DNA from: Candidatus Dormiibacterota bacterium
GTDB lineage: Bacteria; Chloroflexota; Dormibacteria; Aeolococcales; Aeolococcaceae
Direction: 5' to 3'
Length of the DNA stretch: 64,000 bases
Assembly: GCA_963718525.1 (NCBI GenBank)
Contig: OY970355.1
Coordinates: 960,001-1,024,000, forward strand
Each line of letters begins with the position of its first letter. Position 1 is the stretch's first letter. Positions 41,456 to 63,860 of this stretch are shown piece after piece. The notes below the pieces were generated by a model. That model worked only from the letters and a program-made list of their open reading frames with translations. It was not told the origin of the DNA and did not search any database. Made by a program: the position numbers and the translations under genes.

Positions 41456-41492
41456 CGTCGGAGCTTAGTGCTCCGGTGGAGGAGGCGACGCA

Positions 41493-41675: not shown

Positions 41676-41706
41676 CTATAGGCGGACAGTGTGGATCTAG
41701 GCTTCG

Positions 41707-41814
41707 TCAGGGCGGCGGCTCCACCACGGCAATTCCGTCGGCGATATGGATGCGCCAACCCTCCTCGTGCACCACGCGGTGATGCGGCCGGCACAGAGAG
41801 ACCAGGTTAGTCAG
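41707..41814 (-). pseudogene. C-terminal remnant of an HNH endonuclease (DUF222/REP13E12-type)
   Basis: LTNLVSLCRPHHRVVHEEGWRIHIADGIAVVEPPP*; preceded in frame by TAA, 11 bp from the integrase start. Confidence 0.75.
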
Positions 41815-41825: not shown

Positions 41826-43250
41826 ATGCCCCCTGCCATGAAGAGCCCGAAGGCAGCAGCGATTTATGCGCGGATCAGTAGCGATCCCGCCGGAACCGCG
41901 CTAGGCGTCGAGCGGCAGCTCGAAGACTGTCGGCAGCTCGCGGCCGACCTCGGGTGGAGTGTTGGTGGCGAGTACGTGGATAACGATGTCTCGGCATACT
42001 CGCGCACGCGCAAGAGGCCCGAGTACACGAGGATGCTTGGCGATCTTAGGGACGGCCAGTGCGACGCCGTGTTGGCCTACCACGTCGATCGGCTATACCG
42101 GCGGCCGATAGAACTGGAACAGCTGCTTGAGGTCGCCGCCGAGGCGCGCGTGCTCGGTATTCACTTCGTAGCGGGGCAGGAACTCGACCTTGGCAATGGT
42201 GATGGACTCCTCGTGGTGCGCATGCTCGTCGCGGCGGCGGCACACGAGTCAGCCTCGAAGAGCCGCCGCATCCTTCGCAAGATGGAACAGAACGCAGCCG
42301 CCGGCCTGCCTCACGGTGGTGGCCCCTACCACCGTCCGTTTGGCTACGAGAGCGACAAGATCACTGTTCGCGAATCCGAGGCCGAGCTCATCCGGACGCT
42401 GGCCGGCCGCTTCCTGGCCGGAGAGAGCACCAGGTCGCTCGCGAAATGGCTGGAGCAGGACGGGGCCAAGACGGTCGCGGGAGGGACATGGACGACGACT
42501 ACGGTTCGCAACCTCCTCACCTCCGGCAGAGTGGCGGGCCTGCGCGAGCATCGCGGTCGGATCGTCGGCCCTGCGGTATGGCCGCCGATCATTTCCGTTG
42601 AGCAGCGCGACCGCATCTGTGCACGCCTCACAGCAAACGTCCGCGCCGGGCGACGAACTCCCCGCCGGTACTTGCTGAGTGGATTACTGCGGTGCGGCCG
42701 CTGCGGCACCCGACTGTTCAGCTCAGCTCGGCGAGCCCACCGTCGCTACGTGTGCCTATCCGGACCTGATCACGGCGGCTGTGGTCACCTCACGGTCGTC
42801 GCCGGCCCGTTGGAGGCGCTGGTAGCCGACGCCTGCATCTTCAGACTGGACTCGCCAGAATTAGCCGACGCCCTCGCAGGTCGCGCATCTAAGAACAGGG
42901 AGGCGGCCGCGCTGAGCGAGGAGTTGGCGACCCTCCGAGCGCGCCAAGAAGAGCTTGCTCACCTGTTCGCGGCCGGCGATATCGGCGGCGCCGAATGGCG
43001 GATTGCCGGGCAGGACCTTGCCCAACGCATGCACCATGTCGAGGCGGCCCTGTCGCGGGTGACCCGCACCGACGCGCTCAGCGGCATCGTCGGCGATGGC
43101 GATCGGCTGCGAGCTGCGTGGCAAGGCATCAGTCTTAGTCGACAGAATGCCGTCATCAGGGCAGTACTCGACCATGCGGTGATCGCACCGGGGGTGTCTG
43201 GCGCCCGTGCGCTCGACCATCATCGCGTCGGCTTCGTGTGGCGGGCCTAG
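41826..43250 (+). CDS. Large serine recombinase (integrase), phiRv1-like
   Basis: YARISSD..G..LGVERQ, DNDVSA, DRLYRRP.EL, AAHES, WTTTT, LLSGLLRCGRCG zinc ribbon, C-terminal RV..VWR; start 41826 or 41838. Confidence 0.95.
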   Translation: MPPAMKSPKAAAIYARISSDPAGTALGVERQLEDCRQLAADLGWSVGGEYVDNDVSAYSRTRKRPEYTRMLGDLRDGQCDAVLAYHVDRLYRRPIELEQLLEVAAEARVLGIHFVAGQELDLGNGDGLLVVRMLVAAAAHESASKSRRILRKMEQNAAAGLPHGGGPYHRPFGYESDKITVRESEAELIRTLAGRFLAGESTRSLAKWLEQDGAKTVAGGTWTTTTVRNLLTSGRVAGLREHRGRIVGPAVWPPIISVEQRDRICARLTANVRAGRRTPRRYLLSGLLRCGRCGTRLFSSARRAHRRYVCLSGPDHGGCGHLTVVAGPLEALVADACIFRLDSPELADALAGRASKNREAAALSEELATLRARQEELAHLFAAGDIGGAEWRIAGQDLAQRMHHVEAALSRVTRTDALSGIVGDGDRLRAAWQGISLSRQNAVIRAVLDHAVIAPGVSGARALDHHRVGFVWRA

Positions 43251-50630: not shown

Positions 50631-53600
50631 TCAGTCCGTTTCGAAGCCGTACGCGTCCAGCTTGAGTGTCCGTGCATTCTCGGTGACGGTGCGCGTCACG
50701 TGATCGGGGAATCCGCCGGAGTTGGTGGCTTTGACCTCGACCGAGATTTCGATGTCGGTACCCAAGTAGCCGGCGAGGTTCGCGATCACCTCAGCCGCCA
50801 GCTTCGCAAAGTCGCGTTGGTATCGCTCTGGGTCGAGCTTGGCCACAGCGTAGAAACGTCGCAGGGCTTCGACCACCGGAGCCTCGGCGTCGCGGTCATG
50901 AAGCGTGAGTTCCGCGGTGGCCGGGGGCTTGCCACCAGCGCCCGAGCCCGCCAGGCGTTCGGTCGCCTCATCGACGAGCTGCGGTGCGGCGGCATCCGGC
51001 TGGACGACGAGGGTCGCACCCGTCACTGTCGTCCCCTCCGCGTGCGTGGAGAGAGCCACAAACCGCCCAGTCGTCGGATCGACGCCATCAGCCAGAGCGA
51101 ATCCCATCGTCTGCCACGTAATCGGATTCGCCCCGTGACGGGCCGTTGCGCAAAGGGTCTCCAGGTTCTTGAGACGCGGGAGATATGGGTATCGGGCGAA
51201 TGCGTCCCACACCGCGTTCACGGTCGTGTAGCCCTCGACCCACATCGGCGAGAGGACACCCCCGGGATTGAGAAGGCCGCGGAGCAGCTCGCTGGGGTAG
51301 GCGATACCAAGAGAACCCGCATTGACGAGCTTTCGGCTCGCACGGGCGCCGACCGGTCCCTGGCCGTCGGCCTTCATCATCTCCCACTCGATTGCGCCCA
51401 TCGAGTTCAGGCTGATGCGGGACTAGACACCAGTGGTAGCTCTCGGCGAGACGGAGGTCCACAGCGCGATCAGCGTCACTTCGCTTGGACCGGGCCTGGT
51501 TGGTCTGGAAGACGTCAAGGTTTAGCTCTGCACGGCGGTCGTCGATCTCCTTCCACGCTAGATACTCGGCCGACCCTCGCTCAAGCTCCCCCAGGCGCGT
51601 CAAGTCGGGGGCGAGGAATACGAGCATATTGCGGTACAGCCGTTGCCCCGACGCTCGCTGGTCGAGGATTTCACGTGCGGCCGCCATGGCCTGGGAGTTG
51701 AGGTCTCTGTTCGTGTGGGGCGCACTCGGCGCGAGGATGACGAGCCGTGCTTCTGAATCATCGGGGACCTCACCGGGACTAGCCGGGCACACGTGTACCG
51801 CCACGAACTCCCCGCGCTCGCGGGCTTGCTCGCGAAGTCTGCGAATGATCTCGGCGTGAAGTTCGTCTCGACGGGTCGCGAGCAGTTGGTCCACAAGTTC
51901 GCGGGCACGCCGGGCAACCGACGCCTGCGTCCCGTACCAGTAGCGGGCGCCCTCGACATAGAGGTAGGAGGATCGGTCTGTAAGTCGGTTGAGTGCATCC
52001 CCATACGTGGCTACGGATTCGCCAGGGAGTGTGCACGCGAGCTTGACACGTTGGATCTCCACGCCGCGATTAGCGGAGCCCGTTCTCGGTGCTGACGCTA
52101 GGAAGACGGCCCTAGCCGCACGCCGGGCAGCTCCGTAGCGCCCGAGGTTGGGGAAGGCTCGGTCGAGCCTGTGCGGCACCGATGACGGTCCATCGATGTC
52201 GCTGTCGAGGATTGGCTGCCATGTGTGGTCAAGGTTTCTCGTCAACTCGGACTGCACAGCCGCATCGTCCAACGGGACGCTGGCGGGGAGGATCAAGGGC
52301 GATTGGTCGTTGCCGGCCCAAAGCGCCGAGATCACTGCGGCCATAAGTCGGAGCACGCCGCGGGTGCGCTGGAAACCCTCAAGGGTCGACCAGTCTTCGT
52401 AGAGGCGAGCGAACAGCTCTGGATGAATGGGGTACGAGCGCTTGATCTTCTCGACATACCCCGGCTCTCGGCACTCGCCAGGGAACTCTGATGCCTGCGT
52501 CCGGTACATCTCGCTGAACGTTTGAGCGGTTGCGTCCCGATACCTGGTGAGGTCGGAGGGGATCGGTTCGAACAGGCGGCGTCGGACGATCTCAAAGCTC
52601 TCGTCGGCCGACGCCGGGCGCCACGATGTTTCTGTGCGGGCCATCACATTGCCAAGTCGACGAGCGGCCTCCTGTCCCGCGACGCCACCGACCTCGGCCT
52701 CAGAACCAATTGGAGTAGCGCCGGACCTAGCGGGGTCGTCGGACACGGGGAGTGAAACCACGAGGAGCACTCCCGGGACCGCGATTGCTGCATCGGCAAG
52801 GGTCTGGGCGAAGGAGAACTGCGTCTCGAACATGCCGCCGGGAAGCAGCTCTGATGTCTCGAAGAGCTGGCGGGCGTAAGCTACCCATTCGTCGATCAAG
52901 AGTAAACACGGGCCGAAACGTCTAAACACTTCGGACATCGCACGGCCAGGGTTAGTAGCGGTCCGGTCGGCTTCGCTCACAAGCCGGTAGCCCTCGACGC
53001 CGCCGAGTTGCCAGGCGATCTCGCCCCACAGGGTGCGTATCTCAGTGCCATCGGGCTTTACCTGAGGCTGACCCGGGGAAAACTCCGTGCCGACGAGGAC
53101 AGCTCGCCTCACGGGAGGCAACTCATTCACGCCAGCAGCGGTAAGAAGCTCCTGAATCTCCTGCGGGAACGATGTGGTTGGCAGACCAGAGAAGAGGTGG
53201 TAGAGCGCAATCATGGAGTGGGTCTTGCCGCCGCCGAAATTGGTCTGTAGGTCGACGACAGGTACGCCCCCGCCACTTGTAATCCGCTGGGCCGCGTGCG
53301 TGAGCAGTTGCCGAAGTCCGGCAGTCAAATATGTGCGTCGGAAGAACTCGATTGGCTCCGTGTACTCGGCGAGCCCTCTTCCGAGGTGCACTTGCTGGAG
53401 GTTGGCTGCGAACTCAGCCAGAGCGAATTTGCCCTTGGCGACGTCGTCGTGGGGCTGGATCACCTCTCGCCACGGCCGAAGCCCCCCGGCGGGCTCGGTG
53501 AAGAGAGCATCCGGGTGGGGCGCGGTCTTCTTAGCGTCCGCTTCGAGACGCTGACGCATCAGGTCGCTCTTGGCCGCGCCGACTTCGGTTGCTTCCGAAG

Positions 53601-53943
53601 CACCAATCACCGTGAGCAGCCGTTCGATCGTGTCGAGGGCGCGGTATGCATCGTCGTGCGAGAACGGTTCGTTGTGAGCCCACTTGTTGCGCCAGTCGCG
53701 AACCTCGCCTATCAGGTTGCGCCCCGTCGTCCGCAACTCGTTCCGAAAAACGTCCTGCCAGTTGTCGAGCACGGCGCTGATTTGCGCCGCGGGATCCTTG
53801 TCGACATTGACGTCGGCGTAGGTAGCCTTCCATCCGTCTCCTTTCGGAGAACTCTTGGACATGCGTTGGTCCACATAAGGCCCGAATGCCCGGCCCAACA
53901 ACTCCAGGGCCCTGGCCACGCGATCCCGATTACTTGTCGCCAT
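50631..53943 (-). pseudogene. Swt1-like HEPN plus DUF499 AAA+ ATPase, split by a +1 frameshift near 51406 (real or sequencing error)
   Basis: RNKWAH HEPN motif, EFAANL, TNFGGGKTH, LIDE, YPIHPEL, FQRTRGVLRL; span 3313 = 3x1104+1; C-terminal part in ORF 50631-51401. Confidence 0.85.
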
Positions 53944-56680
53944 CAACTCTCAACCCTGGGAGTGATCCCTGACCGTCAGCACCAACAGCAGCCATTCGGC
54001 TGATCTCAAGCCACGACGCAGCGAGCGCATTGTACGGACCGGCGTCCTTCGACCACTTTTTTGCCTCAGCAATTTGGAACAAACGATATGCAAGATCACG
54101 AGCGGCGTCGCCGAACCCACCGACCTTCGAAAGCAGGTCCGCGGCTGAGGCCTCACCGTCATTGAGCAGTCGCCGGATCAGATGCTGCGTGACCTCCCAG
54201 ACTGTGAGCCGGCTGTCCGTTGTCGGATCCCACGTCGGGTCCAGCTCGTCACGCTCCAACAATCGCACCTTACCGGCGCCCGACTTCACCAGGCCCGCAC
54301 GAACAAGTCCGTCAACGCTGACGTTCTTCGCACGGCTGAGGTCGTCCGCTCTCCCGTATGTTCCCTCATCCATTCCCTGCTCTGCGTACCAAGCGATCGC
54401 CCAGCGAGTGTCCTCGTCGAACTCACCCTCCTGCTCTGCGCTGACTTCATCTAGAACTTGATTGATCAGCGCCAGAGCCGTCCGGACGTGCATTGGTGTG
54501 CCGTCGGGCTCGACCACTTTGGCGTAACCAGAAAAGACGGCCATACCTGGCCCGATCGCTGCCTGGGCGAGATCGACCGGTGCGATGCCCCCACTTTGCA
54601 AATCTCTGAGAGCGTGCCCTAACCGGCCCTTGAGCGATTGGACAAAGCCCCGCCGATCCGTGACGCCAGCCGTGCTCGGGCGCGGTCGGCACACGAGAAC
54701 GATCGACGATGCGAGGGCATTCGTGCCGAGTCCAACGCTCCGGCTCGCGCGCTCAGTCCGCATCGGCCAAGTGCCAGTCACCATCAAACCCGAGCGGAGC
54801 AGACCATCCAGCATCTTCTCCCAACCGGTCGACGCGACGCCACGTGTGTTCCCGTCGGCCTCGTCCTCTGATTCGCTCTGTTTGAATGCATAGAAGATCG
54901 TTAGCGGCGTGCCCTGCGCCGTATGCTTAGCGGCACCACTGAAAACTTGGCGAAAGCCATGCTCAAAATGTTGCTCAGCCTTGTGCTTGTCCCCACCAAA
55001 CCGGAACGGGCTCGCAATCAGTTCCTCCGTTTTTGGCGTGAGAAGAGTCCTGAGCAGGTCAGGATAGATGTTGAAAAGTGACCGCCGCAGCCACACATAG
55101 AAGAAGTCCGAGAGGTCTGCATATCCGATGTTGTCGTAGTACGGCGGGTCACTACAAAGGACAGCCTCACTCCAACCCAGGGAAGCGGCATTTGCGAGAT
55201 CGACGGACACCTCTGCGGACCCGACCAGTGACTCGACAACGCGCGCCGTCGCCTCAACGGATGAGACGAGGTCTCCTGCGGCTCCAGCCAAAGGGTTAGC
55301 CTCGGCATAGTCCCAGGTCATCGGAATGGCTTGGCGGGCAAAAGTGCTCCTGGTTGCCCCCGTGCCATGACCAGAGCGCCACGTGACGATGGTTGAAAGG
55401 TCGTCGGCAGCATTACTACAAGCAAATGCTAAGTACGTTGCGACGGCGTCGGCGTACGCTGGATCGTCGTGGCTGTCGGCGAGGACGCGCTTGTGCGCCT
55501 CGCCGACGAGGTCACTGAATGTACACAATGTCGCAAGCTGCCGGTCCGTGAATAGATCGGCATGGTGCGTCATGCCATAACCCTGGACCCTAAAGCCGAG
55601 CGCACGCTCCGGCAACTCGCTGTCAGGCACATTCACCGGTGGCCTCGGAAGGTCTTCCATCTGTTGATTTGGCGCTGACGGGGGAAAGTAATCGCGCCCC
55701 TGCGTTCCTTCCGCGGCAACTGCCATGAGCTGTGCACCCATACGGCCGGCTTGCGCCTCGACACGGACATGGTCCAGCGGAACTGCCGTGTGACACACAA
55801 GGCAGGTGGCACCCGTGCGAAGGACCGAACCTTCTACGGGCGGCCCCTCCTTACCGTGTCTGATCTCAAACCCAACATTTCTAGCGGTGGAATCTGGGAT
55901 TGGATGAACCCAGGCTTCTCTGCCTCGCTTCTTGCTCAACCAAAAACTGCGTACGAGAGGCATCGTTGCCTGACAGGCTGGGTTTGGACAAATCACCGTT
56001 CGCGCCCAAAGCCATGCAATGACTTTTGCCCGCCTTCCGTCCGCATGGATGAGCGGCGGGTAGAGCGGGCTGAGTCGGCGCTCAGCTTGGTCGCGCATCC
56101 AGTTGCCGTAGTAGCGAATGTCCTCTGCAAGACCCTGAGCGCGTCGCCAGGTCTGCCCCATTTGAAGCGTCGTTCCGGATTCGGGATGGACAGGTGGTCT
56201 GTTCGCGAACTTCGGGGGAAGTTCCGTCAGCGCTTTGGTGATCAGAACCGCGACGGGATTGAGATCGCTGGCGTGCGCCTCCAACCCAAGGCGTTGCGCT
56301 TCGAGTGGTATGGAGCCACCGCCACAGAAGGGGTCGACGATGGTCGGAAGTCCGTCGGGATACCATCGCCGAATCTCCGCTCGCGCTTCTTCGAGGACCT
56401 TCACGTCGTTTGACGCTTCCCAGGGAACAAGACGCTCGATAATGTCAAAGAGCCGACGACGTTCCTGTTCTTGGTCGGCTTCAGTGTGAAAGAGTTCTGG
56501 ATGCGCAGAGGGATCATCAACGAGCTGAGCAAACAGCACTGCGCGGCATGCCGCGAGGGGGCGGCGCGCCCACCACAGGTGGAGCGTGCTTGGGTGGCCG
56601 TGGCGAATGCTCTTCTCTCTCGCTGCTTCCCTGTTGATTACGTCAAGAGGAAGGGCCACCTCGATCAGCTTCGTTGGCAT
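53930..56680 (-). CDS. DUF1156-family adenine DNA methyltransferase
   Basis: KLIEVALPL, HLWWARRPLAACRA, DPFCGGGSIP, DLNPVA, DPPYYDNIGYADLSDFF; two CxxC motifs. Confidence 0.93.
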   Translation of the reverse strand: MPTKLIEVALPLDVINREAAREKSIRHGHPSTLHLWWARRPLAACRAVLFAQLVDDPSAHPELFHTEADQEQERRRLFDIIERLVPWEASNDVKVLEEARAEIRRWYPDGLPTIVDPFCGGGSIPLEAQRLGLEAHASDLNPVAVLITKALTELPPKFANRPPVHPESGTTLQMGQTWRRAQGLAEDIRYYGNWMRDQAERRLSPLYPPLIHADGRRAKVIAWLWARTVICPNPACQATMPLVRSFWLSKKRGREAWVHPIPDSTARNVGFEIRHGKEGPPVEGSVLRTGATCLVCHTAVPLDHVRVEAQAGRMGAQLMAVAAEGTQGRDYFPPSAPNQQMEDLPRPPVNVPDSELPERALGFRVQGYGMTHHADLFTDRQLATLCTFSDLVGEAHKRVLADSHDDPAYADAVATYLAFACSNAADDLSTIVTWRSGHGTGATRSTFARQAIPMTWDYAEANPLAGAAGDLVSSVEATARVVESLVGSAEVSVDLANAASLGWSEAVLCSDPPYYDNIGYADLSDFFYVWLRRSLFNIYPDLLRTLLTPKTEELIASPFRFGGDKHKAEQHFEHGFRQVFSGAAKHTAQGTPLTIFYAFKQSESEDEADGNTRGVASTGWEKMLDGLLRSGLMVTGTWPMRTERASRSVGLGTNALASSIVLVCRPRPSTAGVTDRRGFVQSLKGRLGHALRDLQSGGIAPVDLAQAAIGPGMAVFSGYAKVVEPDGTPMHVRTALALINQVLDEVSAEQEGEFDEDTRWAIAWYAEQGMDEGTYGRADDLSRAKNVSVDGLVRAGLVKSGAGKVRLLERDELDPTWDPTTDSRLTVWEVTQHLIRRLLNDGEASAADLLSKVGGFGDAARDLAYRLFQIAEAKKWSKDAGPYNALAASWLEISRMAAVGADGQGSLPGLRVDGDK

Positions 56681-59600
56681 CAGGCGTCCAAAGGTGATGC
56701 AGCCCGGTGCCAATAGGCCTGCCAGGCGAGGGTCGTGCTAGTTGTGTCAAACGGCAGGCGGACATCGGGACCATAGGGATGCAGCAAGTACTGCACCCGA
56801 TCGTGCTCCGGCCCGTTGGGCGAGACCTCGACGAGTGCAAGGACGTACGCGTCCGGCACGTTCGCGGCAAACCGAAGCTCGTTTTGAGTTACCACGAACG
56901 TGTCAGCTCCTTCGATGCGGCCCTTGACCTCCAAGAACGAAGTCGCGCCTCCGGCCGTGGTCGAGCGCACGTCGTATCCCGGGTGATTGTGAGGCATCTC
57001 GAACGCCTCGTGGCCGAACCGCCTCTCGATCGACAGTACCGCATCGACCGCACGTCGCTCGACGATGGTTGTGTCAACCGCATAGGTGGCTGATGCCGCA
57101 GGTGGCTCGCCGATCGCCTGTAGCACGAGGCCGATTGGTATGACCAGGGCACCCCCGACAACCACCGGAGGTTGAGAGGCTACCTGCGCCTCGCGATCCA
57201 GTTCGGCGAGTCTGGTTTCCTTGCGGCGTTGCAACTCATCGGCACGTCCAGCAGCCCGGTCCGGATTCATCCGTGGTGACTTGCCGGCGGCTGCTTGGAG
57301 TTGAAGCTCACTTGCGCGGTGATCCCAGTAGGTAACCTCTCGCGTCAGGCGCTCTTGTACCGCGGCTTTCACCTTGGCTACTCGCGCCACGATACGGGAG
57401 CGGACTTCGGCGAGGTGCTCGGCGGAGAGAACGTCGATTCCGTAATCGACCGCCCTCGAACTCAACGTCATCGTGCAGCCATGACATCTTCTTGACCAAA
57501 GGACCGAGGGCCAACAGCTCCGCATCGGTGGGCGGCCGAAGGTCAAGGTAAGGCGCGTAGCTCGCCGGTCGAAGCTCGCCTGCTTCGGGAACTTCAACGA
57601 ACTCGAATCGACGTGACACAGTGCGCCGGTTCCCATGGCCATCGTCTCGCGCATCGGTTAGTGCATGTTCCAGGAAGACGAGCACGCTCGGGTCAGTTCC
57701 GCCGTCCGTTGAGTCAACCAACACCGCTCCTTGGCGGAGGAGAGTTCGGTGGCGTTCCAGGGTGATGTCAAGAACCGCTTCGAGAAGCGGATGGCCAGGA
57801 GCTACCAGCTCAGCGAGCGGCTTGCCTTCAACGTGAACGAGCGTCTTCTCGAACGTCACGCGTTGATATTTCGGAAGAACGGGCACACCGGCACCGATTA
57901 AGCGGTCGCGGTTGCGTATTTCGGCGGGGACGAAAGTGACCTCAAACCTGCTCGCCTCGCGTTCGCTCATCCGGCCGCCGAGGTGCGAAAACGCTAGCGC
58001 GAACCATGCGTGTACATAACCCGGTTGCAGCTTGCGGGCCTCGGCTTCGAGCATGTCGGCTCGGATCTGTTCGAGGTCGGCCGTGGACAGCACCTCGGAA
58101 CTGAGCGCATGCTCGCGGACCATCGCCGGAAGACCTTCGCCAACCTTCGCGTCGATGATCCGGTTGAGTTGCGCCTTTACCTCGGGCTGGTTGCCGTAGC
58201 GAATCGCTTGTAGTAGCAGGTCTCGCAGCTCACGGCCGGGGAGAACATCGCCTAGGACGTCAAACACTTGATCCTTACCGAGGGTGTCGCGCATCTCGGA
58301 GAGCTTGTCCAGAAGCCGTCGGTAGACCTGTCCCTCGCGAGTCTCGTCGGCGACGAGGTTCCACATGTGGCAGACCTCAGTCTGCCCGATCCGATGTACC
58401 CGTCCAAATCGCTGCTCGATGCGATTGGGGTTCCACGGCAAGTCGTAGTTCACCAAGAGATGGGCTCGCTGGAGGTTGATGCCTTCTCCGGCAGCGTCAG
58501 TCGCAACCAGGATCAGACAGTCCTTATCCTGGGTGAATCGTTCCTGGATAACTCGTCGTTCTTCACGAGCTACCCCTCCGTGGATCGCGACCACGGCCTC
58601 GTCCTTGCCTAGGTACGTGCGTAGCTTGCCGACGAGGTAGTTCAGTGTGTCGCGATGCTCAGTGAACACGATCAGCTTCCGCCGCGTTCCACCGGCTTCC
58701 ATCATCTCCGGCGCATCGGCGAGAAGGCCAAGAAGTTCGGTCCACTTCTTGTCGATCTGGGATTGGCGAACGCGGTCAGCGAGGCCTTCGAGTCGACCCA
58801 GTGTTGCGATCTCGTGATGCAACTCAGCCAGGGTGCGCGCGCTCGTGGCTTGATCCAGGAGCTGTTCCTCCAGCTCCTCGACCTCGGCGCCCTCGAGATC
58901 CTCAATGTCGTCATCAAAGTCCTCGTCGGGGTCGTCGAGCTGGATGCGAAGCGGTTCGGATTCAGCAAGGATTGCCTGCGCTCGCTGCTGAGCCCTTGCG
59001 TCGCGCGCCCTTTCTTCTAGTCTTTTGCGACGCCGGGAGAGGGATTGATAGATTGCCTCGGGGCTTGATGCGAGTCGCCGCTGCAACACCGTCAGCGCGA
59101 AGCCAACACGGTTTCCACGCCGACCCTCGCCTTCCGCAGATAGGCGTTCAGCGCGCCCCATTTCCTCTGCGACGTAGTCGGTTACCTCCGCGTAGAGCGC
59201 CATCTCCAAGTCAGACAACTCATACGGGACGGTGTAAGCACGGCGCTCGGGGAATAGGGGTCGACCGTCGAACCGCAGGATGTTCTCCTTCACCATTCGA
59301 CGCATAAGGTCTGATACGTCCGCTGTGTGCACCCCGTCGTGGACCTTCCCCTCAAACCGATCTGAATCGAGGAGCGCCATGAAGAGCTGGAAGTCCTCTT
59401 CCTTGCCGGCGTGGGGTGTCGCCGTCATCAACAGGAAATGGCGGGCTGTCTCACCGAGCACTTTGCCGAGCCGATAGCGCTTTGTCTCCTTTACTTCGTT
59501 GCCGAAGTAATGGGCGGCCATTCGGTGAGCCTCGTCGACCACAACGAGATCCCACTCCGTGGCCGCCAATCGCTCTACCAAGTCATCGTTGCGGGAAAGG

Positions 59601-60223
59601 TGATCCAGACGACCGATGAGTAGATTCCGCTCGCTAAATGGGTCGCCTGTTCGCGCTGCTTCAATCAGCTCTCGGGTCAGAATCGAGAAGTCGAGTCCGA
59701 ACTTGTCGTGCAACTCGTCCTGCCATTGCCCGACGAGCCCACCAGGCGCAACGATGAGAGCTCGGCGCAGATCGCCGCGTAACATCAGTTCCTTTATGTA
59801 GAGCCCCGCCATGATGGTCTTCCCGGCTCCGGGGTCGTCAGCGAGGCAGAAGCGCAGCGGCTGACGGGGCAGCATCTCGCCGTAGACGGCGATGATCTGG
59901 TGCGGCAACGGTTCGATGAGGCTGAGATGAACCGCAAGGCGCGGGTCAAAGAGATAGGCGAGGCGGATTCGGCGGGCCTCCGCAACGAGCCGGAACAGGG
60001 CTGCGTCACCATCGAACGACCAAGCGGCGCCGCGCCCGTCTACGCTCAAGTCGCCCTCTTGGGTGCGGTAGACGACCTGCTCGTCCACCTTGCCCGCCGG
60101 CGTGCGGAACGTGAGTACCACGCTCCGAGTCCCAGCCCAGCGAGCTGCGACAACGGTGACGGCCTCACCTGGGACAACCCCCCGAACAAGCGCGCCGGGT
60201 GTCAGTTCCTCAAGCCTCGTCAT
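56680..60223 (-). pseudogene. SNF2-family helicase plus DUF3883 PD-(D/E)xK nuclease, split by a +1 frameshift near 57459 (real or sequencing error)
   Basis: LADDPGAGKT, DEAH, TATPH, GEGINLQ, EQRFGRVHRIGQ; tail GYDVRS..EVKGR..NE; span 3544 = 3x1181+1. Confidence 0.88.
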
Positions 60224-60383
60224 CGCAATCCATACACCCTACGGTCATTTGTGCACCGCCAGCGCCCCAACGATCGCCCTGCCCTCCGTTTGGCGCCATT
60301 GTGGGACTTCATCTGTCGCCAAGCCGCGGATCTCGGCTGCTTGTGTGGTCTGTAGCCCAGCGGCAGCCTGCGGGACACGTGGG

Positions 60384-61064
60384 TCAGCCACCGTAGCGTT
60401 GCCGGTATTCCCTTCTCACCTCTTGACGGATCCGCGCGTGCTGGGTTCTCTCGAGCGCCAGCTCCCGTCGGGAACCGAAGAAGGCGTCAAATTCTGCCGC
60501 GGCCCGAGACAGGCCTTCGTCTCCCGGGTGGTAAGTACTCGCGGAATCCTGCCACTCCTCCAGTAGCTCGATCTCGAGCAACACAGGCGCGTTAACATCA
60601 TCAAGCGCTTCCAGTTCGACTTTGAGGCGCGAGAGATGATGAATGTAGCGTTGTTGAAGAACGACCAGGCCATAGTCATCGAGGCAAGCCAAACGCCCGA
60701 CAAGATTCAAGTCCGCTGTTCGCACTCGACCGGCTTCCTCAAAAACAGCGAGGTAGTTCTCCGCAACCCCGAGCAGTGTCGGCAATGGACAAACCCGGTA
60801 ATTGTGCTCCCAGAGGTGGGCAGGGTCTTCGTTAGTCCGCACCACACGCGCCATCATTAGATGCGACCGTAGCCTCGTTCCACTGCGCATTGTGCAGGCA
60901 TGACTCAGGACGATCGCCAGCCCAGGCTCCTCCTCGACGCCCGGAATCGACACCTGCTCAAAGATGTCCCCTTGCAACAGAGGCCGAGTAACTGGTACCT
61001 CGCCATCTTGGCGCCTATACCGGTAGATGAGCTCCGGGGAGGTTGGGGATTCAAGTTCCGCCAC
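60384..61064 (-). CDS. Hypothetical protein, divergent PemK/MazF-like fold suspected
   Basis: QGDIF, AIVLSH.C, HLMMARV, AVFEEAGRV..ADL, RLACL...LQQR spaced like MazF elements. Confidence 0.6.
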   Translation of the reverse strand: MAELESPTSPELIYRYRRQDGEVPVTRPLLQGDIFEQVSIPGVEEEPGLAIVLSHACTMRSGTRLRSHLMMARVVRTNEDPAHLWEHNYRVCPLPTLLGVAENYLAVFEEAGRVRTADLNLVGRLACLDDYGLVVLQQRYIHHLSRLKVELEALDDVNAPVLLEIELLEEWQDSASTYHPGDEGLSRAAAEFDAFFGSRRELALERTQHARIRQEVRREYRQRYGG

Positions 61065-61082
61065 AGTCGCTACGCAGGGCTG

Positions 61083-61730
61083 CTAGCGACGTCGTCGCAA
61101 AGACAGCATCCCGTCGCCGGCTTTGAAGACCTCGTGCTCCGAAACAAGTGACTCCCGCCAATCTTGGCTCAAGACTTCCAGTGCTTGTTCGGGTCGGGCG
61201 TGCCCCGTAGCCAGATCAAATAGGGCGTCCCCTCGGCCAGCCAGCAGCAGGTCAAGCCGCCGCGGCCTGAATCGATCCAAAATGGGTAGCTCAAGCCAAG
61301 ATGCTGGGTCCGCGATGTGGTGCGCGCTGAGCACGCTCAGGGTAGCGGCGAGCTGCGCAAGTCTCATTCGATGTTCGGCAACCGCAGACTGGCCATGCCG
61401 CCACTTTCGCAGCGATTGAACCGTAACACCCACCACTCGCGCGATATCGCTCCAAGACATTCCAAACTCAGTGCTGAGTAACTCAAGTATCTGAGGCACA
61501 CTCAGACGCAGATGCATCTCTATTTGGTCTTGGAGAACAACACGCATCGCATCGTGATTTAGGGCGTCCGCCTGCTCCGCTACCTCGCGAATGTGCGAAC
61601 GGAGCTGTCCGGACTGGTAGGCCAACATCAGACCCGTAGGGATTGGAGACTCTGACCTCGAAAGATTCGCTGGCTCGGTTGTGCCTTGCCGTTCGCTTTC
61701 GACGGCGACGTTAGCCTGTGCTGCAACCAT
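61083..61730 (-). CDS. HTH protein resembling Xre/MbcA-type antitoxins
   Basis: GMSWSDIARVVGVTVQSLRKWRHG, DPASWLELP, RRLDLL. Confidence 0.65.
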   Translation of the reverse strand: MVAAQANVAVESERQGTTEPANLSRSESPIPTGLMLAYQSGQLRSHIREVAEQADALNHDAMRVVLQDQIEMHLRLSVPQILELLSTEFGMSWSDIARVVGVTVQSLRKWRHGQSAVAEHRMRLAQLAATLSVLSAHHIADPASWLELPILDRFRPRRLDLLLAGRGDALFDLATGHARPEQALEVLSQDWRESLVSEHEVFKAGDGMLSLRRRR

Positions 61731-62581
61731 CAGCCACCACCTCTTGAATGCTCGTGCTGTCGAACGGCCGCCTCGCTGGTCTTAACAATCGCGTCGAATA
61801 GCCTACGAACCGGCTCGTGAACTAAGTCAGCAGCGGCAAGCGCCGCCTCTAGGTTGAACGCCGGAAGCGGGGCGGACGCTGTCACTGAGCTATCGATATC
61901 GACCAGATAGTAGGGACCGGTCCGAAGGGGGCTGGGCAGCTTTAGGGGACCTTCTGCAATCGAATATCCACGTAGTGAACCGTGACGAAGGATCACTTCG
62001 TGCCCGTCACCCGATACCAGTCGCGTCACTGTCTGGGCGTCCTCGACCGGATACGACAGCACTCGCGACGGAAGCACATGAGCACTTAGTGCCTCGGGGA
62101 CCACGAACTCTTGCCACTGATCAATACTCACCCTTTCCTCGCTATCGTCAAAGCGCAACTCGTTCCAATATCGGATACCAATTCGATCGATCCCCGAAAT
62201 TGCCTCCATCCGCACACCTAAGCCACCGAGCACTTGCTCAAGCACTGATCGGAATGCGTCCCACGAACGGTAGACAGTGGTCTCGACTGCACAAGTCGAC
62301 GCGCCGACGCTGACAGACGTGTACAGGTCACGAGACATGAATCGGTAGCCTTGCTGGGACGAACTCGATCCCGATAGGTCCGGAACGACAGCACCAGGGA
62401 GATTGATCATCAGCCCGCCACTGGTGAAAGGGCGCACGACCGGGAATTCGGGATTCATCACGCTGACGAGTCGCTGGAGTGAGCTAGGGTCGACCAAGGT
62501 CGGCGATAGCGGAAAGCGCACTTCCGCTACGACGAACCTCAATGACGGCTCGTAGACGCCGCGTCGGGGGGCTGTAACCAT
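61730..62581 (-). CDS. TIGR04255-like protein
   Basis: L.FVVAEVRFP, YRF.S.D, ETTVY.SW..F, RIGIRY.N, YLVDID, F..IV; TGATG coupling to next gene. Confidence 0.8.
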   Translation of the reverse strand: MVTAPRRGVYEPSLRFVVAEVRFPLSPTLVDPSSLQRLVSVMNPEFPVVRPFTSGGLMINLPGAVVPDLSGSSSSQQGYRFMSRDLYTSVSVGASTCAVETTVYRSWDAFRSVLEQVLGGLGVRMEAISGIDRIGIRYWNELRFDDSEERVSIDQWQEFVVPEALSAHVLPSRVLSYPVEDAQTVTRLVSGDGHEVILRHGSLRGYSIAEGPLKLPSPLRTGPYYLVDIDSSVTASAPLPAFNLEAALAAADLVHEPVRRLFDAIVKTSEAAVRQHEHSRGGG

Positions 62582-62614
62582 TTCTGCAACTGTATACGCT
62601 ACTAGATCGCAAAC

Positions 62615-62647
62615 GGTTACGGCAAGCCCTGTTGCTTGTCCGTAACC
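62615..62647. promoter_or_regulatory. Inverted repeat upstream of the TIGR04255-like operon
   Basis: GGTTACGG-CAAGC-N6-GCTTG-T-CCGTAACC. Confidence 0.5.
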
Positions 62648-62861
62648 AGGCTAACGGCTCGCTCGATAGGTGATGTCAGGGGACCCTCGTCCCGCGAGCC
62701 CAAGGGACCGAGAGTGGCCCTACGGGGCGATGATGCCGGGCAATAACGGTCGGAGTCGGCATCATGATCGTTGAGCTCCGGGGTAGTGCTTTGTACGCCA
62801 GCGGACTGCCAACGACCCGTTCTATGGCTTTAATGAGGCCATTGATGCAAGGCGACCGGTC

Positions 62862-63860
62862 GTGACGCGTACCTTGGTCGCCGGGGCCTCGTCGAACTCC
62901 AACGGTGCCCCCCCGATGCTGGAGGAGCGCTTCGCGACTGTTCGCGGGCAGCCGCTTCGCTACCTCGTCTGCGGGCGCGGCAAACCGCTGGTCCTCTGCC
63001 ATGGCTTCCTCAGCTCGGCCGAGGAGTTTGGAGGGAGGTTCAGCGAGCTGGGGGCGTATCGAACCCTGATCATCCCCGACCTTCCAGGGAACGGTGCGTC
63101 ACCGCCGCTCCGCGGACGGCACTCGTCCGGGGCCATGGCCGATGTGCTGTTCGACCTGCTGGCTGAGCTCCAGATCGACAAGTTCGATGTCGGCGGTCTC
63201 TGCCTTGGAGCGACCGTCGCCTGCGCGCTCGCGAAGCGGGCAGGCACCCGAGCCGAGCGGTTGGTCCTTCACACGCCGCTGCTGTCGTCCGACCTGATGC
63301 GCCGGCGCTACCGAGACCAGGTGCGCCTGTTGAGCCGCCGGCCCATGTGGGACGGCGTCGTCTGGTTGAGCCGGCAGCGCTGGGTGAGCGATCTCTACAA
63401 GCGCTTCGTCATCGTCGAGGGCGACGTCGACGATCGCACCGCCGACATCAACTACGAGAATCAGCGCCGCGCGGATCCTCGCGCCGCCCGTGAGTGGCTC
63501 AACGACTGCCTGCACCGCGACGACGTCGATGTGGTCGCCGCACGGGCGGAGCGGACGCTCATCATCGTCGCTCGACACGATCGCCTGGTCGACGTGGAAC
63601 GGCTCAAGGACGTGATCGCGACCCTACCCGACCTCCAGGTGTTCACCGACAGCGACCAGGGTCATGGCTGGAACGAGGAGGCCGTGCACCGTCAGCTGGA
63701 GGTGCTCAAGGCGTTCTTCGGCAACTGCCACGGGAATGGCCACACTAATGGAAGTCAGGTGGTTGCCTCGGGCGTGTCAGCGAACGGCGCTGCGAACGGA
63801 GCAAGCCACGGACGGCCCTCGCTGCGCGACACGGTCAGTGTCCCGCTCTCCCACGCCTGA
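62862..63860 (+). CDS. Alpha/beta hydrolase fold protein
   Basis: LVLCHGF, PDLPGNG, GLCLGA elbow (Cys at nucleophile position), GHGW; start may be 62916; host-like GC. Confidence 0.85.
   Translation: MTRTLVAGASSNSNGAPPMLEERFATVRGQPLRYLVCGRGKPLVLCHGFLSSAEEFGGRFSELGAYRTLIIPDLPGNGASPPLRGRHSSGAMADVLFDLLAELQIDKFDVGGLCLGATVACALAKRAGTRAERLVLHTPLLSSDLMRRRYRDQVRLLSRRPMWDGVVWLSRQRWVSDLYKRFVIVEGDVDDRTADINYENQRRADPRAAREWLNDCLHRDDVDVVAARAERTLIIVARHDRLVDVERLKDVIATLPDLQVFTDSDQGHGWNEEAVHRQLEVLKAFFGNCHGNGHTNGSQVVASGVSANGAANGASHGRPSLRDTVSVPLSHA

Follow-up and report, generated by a model that had tools for sequence, protein, structure and literature searches.

In a 64,000-nt stretch of the genome of a Candidatus Dormiibacterota bacterium (contig OY970355.1, positions 960,001 to 1,024,000 of the forward strand; hereafter, the window), three tightly linked genes at positions 60,384 to 62,647 form a triad that recurs in other bacteria and that we consider to be a conserved toxin-antitoxin-like cassette, so far undescribed. 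The first gene encodes a protein of the TIGR04255 family, the second a helix-turn-helix (HTH) protein with remote similarity to antitoxins of the Xre/MbcA/ParS type, and the third a protein whose predicted fold is that of the MazF and CcdB toxins. The interpretation that we favour, with a probability of about 0.55, is that of a tripartite cassette in which gene 3 would provide the toxin, gene 2 a DNA-binding antitoxin and gene 1 a third partner. The three genes are arranged as follows.

61730..62581, minus strand: gene 1 (283 aa, ATG start), TIGR04255-family protein; predicted two-repeat alpha/beta saddle
61083..61730, minus strand: gene 2 (215 aa, ATG start), HTH and Xre/MbcA/ParS-like C-terminal domain; putative antitoxin/autorepressor
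60384..61064, minus strand: gene 3 (226 aa, GTG start), MazF/CcdB-fold barrel and C-terminal three-helix domain; putative toxin

Base 61730 is common to the stop codon of gene 1 and the start codon of gene 2 (TGATG, a 1-base overlap) and 18 bp (61065-61082) lie between genes 2 and 3; the tight linkage described in an earlier examination of the letters of the window (the sequence-only reading) is borne out in its coordinates, overlap and gap. The start codons chosen agree with the aligned N-termini of the relatives.

Conservation and distribution of the cassette

Among 1.84 billion proteins, the gene 3 family amounts to 752 representative clusters (E up to 1e-3). Gene order was studied in 31 loci encoding a gene 3 relative, all from species-representative genomes and mostly from Actinomycetota (e.g. 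Mycobacterium angelicum, Amycolatopsis, Kribbella, Streptomyces) and Chloroflexota. Genes 1, 2 and 3 were found by tblastn in the same order and orientation at 21 of these loci, and three more (L029-L031) associate a TIGR04255 gene (E 1e-30 to 4e-34) and an HTH middle gene with the gene 3 relative, the middle gene giving weak Xre_ParS matches (E 0.003-0.006, far below the cut-off). The triad, proposed from a single stretch of DNA, is thus conserved elsewhere, at 24 of the 31 loci. A different layout characterizes five of the seven others (L023-L027, i.e. 5/31), where a conserved protein of ~95 aa is encoded immediately upstream of the gene 3 relative. It has a MazE/AbrB-type N-terminal motif, and its profile matches E. 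coli MazE best in the PDB (E 0.017-0.022), followed by AbrB; the Pfam MazE_antitoxin family is above cut-off in one of the five proteins, has an E-value of 5.5e-4 in a second and is absent from three. Taken together, these sequence similarities point to a MazE-like protein. As for the remaining two loci, L032 has a partial gene 3 match with a gene-2-like open reading frame (ORF) upstream, and L028 was assigned to neither layout.

The members of the triad also vary together: over 19 cassettes, the distance matrices of the three proteins correlate with r values of 0.94-0.96 (Mantel p 5e-4), which shows joint inheritance, not binding. The flanks of the triad are variable and comprise housekeeping genes, integrases, methyltransferases and TIR proteins (122 ORFs scanned). 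An illustration of mobility is provided by plasmid pNAPH of Rhodococcus pyridinivorans, in which the triad, annotated as TIGR04255 family protein, transcriptional regulator and hypothetical protein, has the MobF relaxase gene on one side and other transfer genes on the other. No member of the gene 3 family was detected when 41 further genomes of the genus to which the window belongs were searched, and none of the 50,697 records of a phage collection contained a gene 3 relative.

At three of the 24 triad loci, a DUF1883-TIR gene follows the gene 3 relative (L008:8679-9464, L018:8687-9472 and L020:8659-9444). In L008 it begins within ~10 bp of the gene 3 stop codon; in L018 the two abut or overlap, and in L020 the stop of the gene 3 ORF is less clear. 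The L008 protein is ThsB-like and matches PADLOC PDC-S66 with an E-value of 8e-63. These loci may represent a four-gene variant or a mere neighbouring defence gene.

The gene 3 product

No family was found for gene 3 in Pfam (E up to 1), NCBIfam or PADLOC, and its profile has no meaningful match among PDB sequences. Its AlphaFold2 (AF2) model, with a predicted local distance difference test score (pLDDT) of 86.3, is more informative. The top Foldseek matches are MazF structures (E 2.5e-5, template modelling (TM) score by target 0.73-0.76), and the ten best rows of an independent VIA search are all MazF, CcdB or Kid (Z 8.0-11.5), the best having a Z of 11.5, a root-mean-square deviation of 2.9 and 109 of 115 residues aligned. 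Both searches uphold the SH3-like barrel of MazF/CcdB type that had been anticipated. The barrel extends over residues ~27-148, and the segment ~150-226 consists of three helices having generic structure matches only.

Conservation within the family is substantial. P28, G32, C57, R124, R146 and E164 are invariant in 92 members, D33, H55, P56, R60 and W85 are present in at least 90% of them, and H55-x-C57-x-x-R60 constitutes a motif peculiar to the family. The model suggests a MazF/CcdB-like fold, in a protein whose chemistry or target may differ from those of MazF. As the effector of the cassette, gene 3 would be a toxin of the MazF/CcdB superfamily with an H-x-C-x-x-R motif and an added three-helix domain, and it could act on RNA, as MazF does, on another target, as CcdB does, or by a different chemistry.

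One protein of 479 aa (P0107) was considered as a fusion of genes 2 and 3. Its order is the gene 2 N-terminus (hhalign 99%), a low-complexity Arg-rich stretch and gene 3, and we read it instead as a frameshifted assembly.

The gene 2 product

The middle gene had been described as an HTH protein, and this assignment holds: gene 2 matches HTH_23, albeit weakly (E 2.3e-5, 24.5 bits for a cut-off of 24.6), and matches to HTH_23 are found in 23 of the 25 members of its family. MbcA is the antitoxin of the MbcTA system of Mycobacterium tuberculosis; it is the best PDB match of the gene 2 family profile (E 0.0057), with profile positions 83-171 aligned on residues 18-108 of a 115-residue chain. A bridge is provided by the middle genes of other TIGR04255 cassettes (family A9, 8 sequences). 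They are homologous to the gene 2 family (hhalign probability 97%, E 1.2e-10), and their profile matches both 8qnl_A, a protein with an Xre/MbcA/ParS toxin-binding domain (E 3e-6), and MbcA (E 9e-4); the kinship of gene 2 with MbcA-type antitoxins is strengthened because A9 connects the two. Pfam DUF2384 does not appear in the list of the 25 families most often matched by the 25 gene 2 family members. The succession of an HTH and an MbcA/ParS toxin-binding domain that defines the Xre/MbcA/ParS type is thus recognizable in gene 2, weakly. In the mechanism that we propose, this C-terminal domain would keep the gene 3 toxin inactive.

Gene 1 and the cassettes headed by TIGR04255 proteins

Assignment of the first gene to TIGR04255 proved correct, with a hidden Markov model (HMM) score of 86.4 bits against a curated cut-off of 30 bits (NCBIfam, E 2.5e-24; residues 12-266 on profile positions 5-243 of 252). 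Neither Pfam (E up to 1) nor PADLOC contains a family that gene 1 matches. In particular, SecB is matched neither in Pfam (E up to 1) nor in NCBIfam, nor is it among the listed fold matches. Its AF2 model (pLDDT 83.6, predicted TM score 0.82) displays two strand-helix-strands-helix repeats. The best whole-chain matches are structures of the TATA-binding protein (TBP), with Z of 7.6, 7.3 and 7.1 and 160-169 residues aligned of 180-189, and the kinase domain of McsB, a guanidino-kinase catalytic domain, comes close (Z 7.4, 182 residues aligned). The model thus most resembles a two-repeat saddle of the TBP type, an assignment that is tentative because no match attains a Z of 8. Foldseek also returned S-adenosylmethionine decarboxylase (AdoMetDC) with good E-values and a TM score of only 0.25, i.e. 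a likeness at the fold level only. The gene 1 profile found nothing meaningful among PDB sequences, the best match being mL53 (E 0.026), with thioredoxin-fold proteins weakly matched. Polar positions kept in the 51 family members are Y104 (51/51), Y138 (48), R137 (47), D228 (45) and R133 (43). At position 61824, the contig from sequencing run X1 has a G where the window has an A; it would change Leu253 of gene 1 to Ser. As X1 may be the run of the source sample, this may be an assembly or strain difference.

Of 301 genomes sampled from the phylum, 27 (~9%) encode a TIGR04255 protein. At all 29 TIGR04255 loci other than that of the window, one of which (L033) comes from an unpublished genome (G038), at least two tightly linked and co-directional ORFs of at least 70 aa lie downstream; 28 of the 29 still qualify if ORFs of at least 110 aa are required. 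The control made in the opposite direction gave 2/23 and 0/23, respectively. These partners fall into several unrelated sets. One consists of A9-type HTH proteins with third genes of ~285-315 aa, and another of a ~190-aa family with a small third gene. For this second set there are matches to two PADLOC candidates, PDC-M32A in 6 proteins (E down to 1e-10) and PDC-M32B in 3 (E down to 5e-8). A third has an HEPN-like third gene, detected by Pfam above cut-off in L040 (E 1.9e-5) and with an E-value of 0.003 in L039. At L044/L086 (G027:C134), a DUF499 ATPase (Pfam E 2.9e-7) that is HmaC-like (PADLOC HmaC E 8.8e-40) and 31% identical to the HmaC of the window by tblastn is encoded directly after a TIGR04255 protein and an HTH protein of 200 aa, so that TIGR04255 cassettes and Hma-type genes are linked a second time. 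The middle gene of L037 weakly matches capH (E 0.0019), and the profiles of two other partner families (A6 and A7) have no informative PDB match. The constant element of these cassettes, which comprise at least three genes, appears to be TIGR04255 in the head position, followed by exchangeable partner pairs. Within the triad, gene 1 is probably such a shared third partner, a sensor or modulator; its likeliest role, as an obligatory component, would be to control the antitoxin-toxin complex.

The upstream region of the operon

Three elements precede or overlap the start of gene 1.

62589..62594, minus strand: -10-like hexamer TACAGT, followed by 7 nt and the gene 1 ATG at 62581; leaderless-type spacing
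62615..62647, unstranded: imperfect inverted repeat GGTTACGG(A)CAAGC-N5-GCTTGCCGTAACC; candidate operator
62574..62579, minus strand: third GGTTAC copy, overlapping gene 1 codons 1-3

The TACAGT-N7-ATG pattern noted in the sequence-only reading is present. A consensus sigma-70 scan of 60200-62900 found no promoter-like site, and no terminator-like site either, so that TACAGT is no more than a -10-like pattern, on which the promoter reading rests. The inverted repeat had been credited with 13-bp arms. Eight of these base pairs are perfect (arms GGTTACGG and CCGTAACC, with 17 nt between them); the arms reach 13/14 nt, as read by eye, only if one bulged base is allowed. Perfect arms of 8 nt are not rare, as 12 inverted pairs of at least 8 nt exist within 501 nt. 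Positions 62571-62583, which include the third GGTTAC, can also pair with 62611-62623 (85% complementary).

The repeat gains weight because of the third GGTTAC copy and because GGTAC/GGTTAC repeats recur in related loci. Most triad loci have, upstream of gene 1, three to four phased repeats of the TTTYGGTRY type (GGTAC, GGTTAC, GGTATC, GGTGC) spaced by 11-12 nt, which precede TAGGTT-like hexamers. The hexamers themselves (TAGGTT, TAGATT or TAGGGT) are situated 6-8 nt before the start codon in L008, L010, L011, L012, L013, L019 and L021. The density of GGTAC/GGTTAC-type motifs is 2.44 per 100 nt upstream of gene 1, as compared to 0.29 across whole loci (8-fold), and among 5-mers TAGGT is enriched 18.8-fold and GGTAC 7-fold. 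A repeat motif ahead of the operon, of the GGT(T)AC type, is therefore a shared property of these cassettes. Because the GGTTAC core of the related loci recurs in the window, the sequences support the view that the inverted repeat and the start-codon copy form a candidate operator associated with a leaderless-type promoter. As to the protein bound there, we infer that the HTH of gene 2 would recognize the GGT(T)AC repeats at this promoter and repress the operon.

Genomic context

The triad had been presented as heading the defence cargo of a mobile element. In agreement with this, an Hma system adjoins it directly downstream on the same strand, with HmaA and HmaB (PADLOC E 0 for both) and HmaC (E 1e-243), hmaA lying 160 bp from the triad. 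The G+C content drops from ~0.68 to ~0.60 between 50 and 62 kb. From 44,001 to ~62,750, the window has no DNA match in any of the 15 sampled congeners, and similarity resumes at ~62,750-62,790. On the left side, synteny with 8 congeners stops near 41,477, close to the following gene.

41826-43250, plus strand: large serine recombinase with Resolvase, Recombinase and zinc-ribbon domains; left end of the island

From the mismatch with the congeners, the end of synteny and the failure to find the gene 3 family in the 41 other genomes of the genus, it follows that the triad is the outermost cargo of an accessory island of ~21 kb.

Comparison with known systems

The closest structural parallels are MazEF, PemIK (Kis-Kid) and CcdAB. 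The SH3-like barrel of gene 3 spans nearly the whole of the MazF, CcdB or Kid chains, a gene 3 relative directly follows a MazE/AbrB-type gene at 5 of the 31 loci, and a small, tightly linked operon that can be found on a plasmid is common to all. The differences concern, first, gene 3, which lacks PemK sequence or profile similarity, has no evident counterpart of the canonical Arg and Thr of MazEF/PemIK, displays H55-x-C57-x-x-R60 instead and carries an extra C-terminal domain of ~80 residues. Second, unlike MazEF, the window contains no MazE-type antitoxin gene upstream of gene 3; two other genes are in its place, the nearer encoding the HTH protein. With MbcTA, ParST and Xre-RES the triad shares an Xre-type HTH protein with an MbcA/ParS-related C-terminal domain, encoded directly upstream of a putative toxin gene. 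It differs from them in that genes 1 and 3 match no RES or ParT/ART family in Pfam or NCBIfam and have TBP-like and MazF-like predicted folds, in that gene 2 has an extra N-terminal region of ~80 residues, and in that a third gene is obligatory.

Tripartite toxin-antitoxin systems, such as the toxin-antitoxin-chaperone (TAC) system HigBA-SecB, omega-epsilon-zeta and PaaR-PaaA-ParE, consist of co-transcribed genes and have a third component beside the antitoxin-toxin pair. The triad resembles them in having three genes, the third component accompanying a putative pair, and TIGR04255, like the SecB-like chaperones, joins different partner pairs. In contrast to TAC systems, gene 1 has no SecB family match, is predicted to fold differently and occupies the first position of the operon, and, in contrast to tripartite systems, regulator and antitoxin seem to be one protein (gene 2).

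Among defence systems, Hma is a neighbour and not a relative, since none of the three proteins matches an Hma model and none of the 31 other gene 3 loci has adjoining Hma genes. PDC-M32 is related in another way, through the second and third genes of other TIGR04255 cassettes, which match PDC-M32A/B. A preprint on Hma-embedded systems describes nine candidates other than the triad, among them HEC-07, which combines an AdoMetDC-like N-terminal domain (PDB 3C6K), a thioredoxin-like domain and a RelE toxin domain (Payne et al., bioRxiv 10.1101/2024.01.29.577857). The gene 1 model matches 3c6k_A (Z 7.1) and its profile weakly matches thioredoxin-fold proteins, which gives no more than a fold-level lead to HEC-07 as far as that system is known by its description.

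None of the three proteins of the window matches a PADLOC-DB v2.0.0 model at E up to 1, nor do the triad of L030 and the MazE-like gene pair of L027 at E up to 0.01, which agrees with the suggestion that the system had not been described. A full-text literature search retrieved no paper naming TIGR04255 and none with ‘MazF’ plus ‘DUF2384’. The triad is thus covered by no PADLOC model and by no paper searched. If our interpretation is correct, it would give a first functional context to TIGR04255 and reveal a family of MazF-fold toxins whose conserved motif differs and whose antitoxin partner is unusual, in a cassette offering a testable promoter-operator architecture. Should the cassette protect against phages or stabilize plasmids, the tripartite toxin-antitoxin and defence systems known from Actinomycetota and Chloroflexota would gain a new member.

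Weighing of the interpretations

Genes 1-3 would then constitute a single inherited unit, i.e. a tripartite cassette similar to type II toxin-antitoxin systems and serving for addiction or abortive defence. Several observations weigh against this interpretation. A MazF-like fold, which in our case is that of a model, is by itself no proof of toxicity, and the proposal that gene 3 is a divergent PemK/MazF-like protein stands for the fold and fails for the profile: hhalign of the gene 3 family against 12 canonical PemK proteins of relatives gave a probability of 0.2%, and the PemK HMM (PF02452) is unmatched across the window's own genome. Two residues are invariant in these 12 sequences, R24 before strand 2 and T48 at the end of strand 3, and their equivalents in gene 3, placed by secondary-structure register and not by superposition, would be P47/G48 and T76/N77, where no conserved Arg or Thr is seen. 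The direct matches of gene 2 to antitoxins are marginal (E 0.0057), and RES and ParT, the usual partner toxins of such antitoxins, are absent from the cassette. The fold matches of gene 1 are middling, all with Z below 8. The inverted repeat lies ~100-170 bp inside the island boundary and could belong to the end of the element. Lastly, a purely regulatory role for genes 1 and 2 has to be considered because TIGR04255 and HTH genes precede the HmaC-like ATPase at L044/L086 and the triad precedes hmaA.

A wider reading, possible although we advance it tentatively, takes TIGR04255 proteins as TBP-fold sensors, with a nucleic acid or another ligand on the conserved face of the saddle, that head a large and so far undescribed class of modular three-gene cassettes for abortive defence or addiction. 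The antitoxin-toxin pair would be exchangeable: in the triad an Xre/MbcA-like antitoxin and a MazF-fold toxin, in other cassettes HEPN-like proteins or pairs resembling PDC-M32. Gene 3 would have acquired a Cys/His/Arg active site and with it a chemistry or target other than those of MazF and CcdB.

The main rival, which we judge rather unlikely, is that genes 1 and 2 are a sensor and a repressor controlling a downstream defence gene, be it gene 3 or perhaps Hma, without neutralization of gene 3 by direct binding. It would account for the arrangement at L044/L086, for the short distance of the triad to hmaA with no terminator-like site found, for the several unrelated partner sets headed by TIGR04255 and for the weak similarity of the L037 middle gene to capH. 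Against it, no Hma gene adjoins any of the 31 other gene 3 loci, where the sole tblastn match is an opposite-strand SNF2 helicase (L004), and a TAGGGT hexamer before hmaA suggests that it has its own promoter. The relationship of the gene 2 C-terminal domain to the toxin-binding domain of MbcA/ParS type also speaks against it, as does the classical arrangement of two genes in which other gene 3 relatives are coupled to a MazE-like antitoxin.

Another possibility bears on the inverted repeat at 62615-62647, which, instead of being an operator, might be the island end, i.e. a recombinase site, or a transcript-end hairpin of the neighbouring region. Its distance to the point where congener similarity resumes, the large serine recombinase at the other end of the island and the commonness of 8-nt perfect arms would suit this view. 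We nevertheless regard it as unlikely: the GGTTAC core recurs at the gene 1 start codon, phased repeats with this core precede gene 1 even where the flanking genes are unrelated (e.g. L019 and L020), no T-run follows the repeat and the terminator scan was empty.

We give still less credit to the idea that gene 1 is the active effector or an enzyme, gene 2 its antitoxin or regulator, and gene 3 an accessory adaptor that has kept a MazF-like fold. The constancy of gene 1 in all the cassettes, its small conserved polar set in 51 members, the resemblance of its model to guanidino-kinase catalytic domains (McsB) and the lack of canonical MazF residues in gene 3 could all be explained in this way. 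Yet at 5 of 31 loci gene 3 relatives exist without gene 1, paired only with a MazE-like gene, a layout that fits a toxin; gene 3 has its own invariant polar residues (C57, R124, R146 and E164 in 92 sequences), and the conserved residues of gene 1 are few, which argues against a demanding active site. Finally, chance adjacency of three unrelated genes is rejected because the order of the triad is conserved (24/31 loci) and the protein distance matrices are correlated.

Other features of the island and its borders

The Hma system (50631-60223, minus strand) is complete, with HmaA, HmaB and HmaC, HmaA and HmaC each appearing in the window as two overlapping ORFs. In the contigs of two sequencing runs, a single base is missing exactly at each of the two breaks (57459 and 51406); because both runs lack those bases, single-base insertions made in the assembly are the most likely cause of the frameshifts, and HmaA and HmaC are probably intact. 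The HmaC-like ATPase (51088-53946, minus strand) has an N-terminal Swt1-like HEPN domain (Pfam E 1.4e-26) before the DUF499 region.

At the left border, an element of ~106 nt (41703-41813) directly precedes the serine recombinase gene. The genome of the window contains many dispersed copies of it, 82-91% identical, as does each of the 8 sampled congeners; the element might serve as an attachment site, encode a small RNA or simply be a repeat. At the right border, just outside the island, an alpha/beta hydrolase gene (62862-63860, plus strand) has a paralogue in the same genome (C1:3078735-3079679, 83% DNA identity). As the hydrolase gene is not beside the left-flank genes in the congeners checked, the region may be a variable hotspot.

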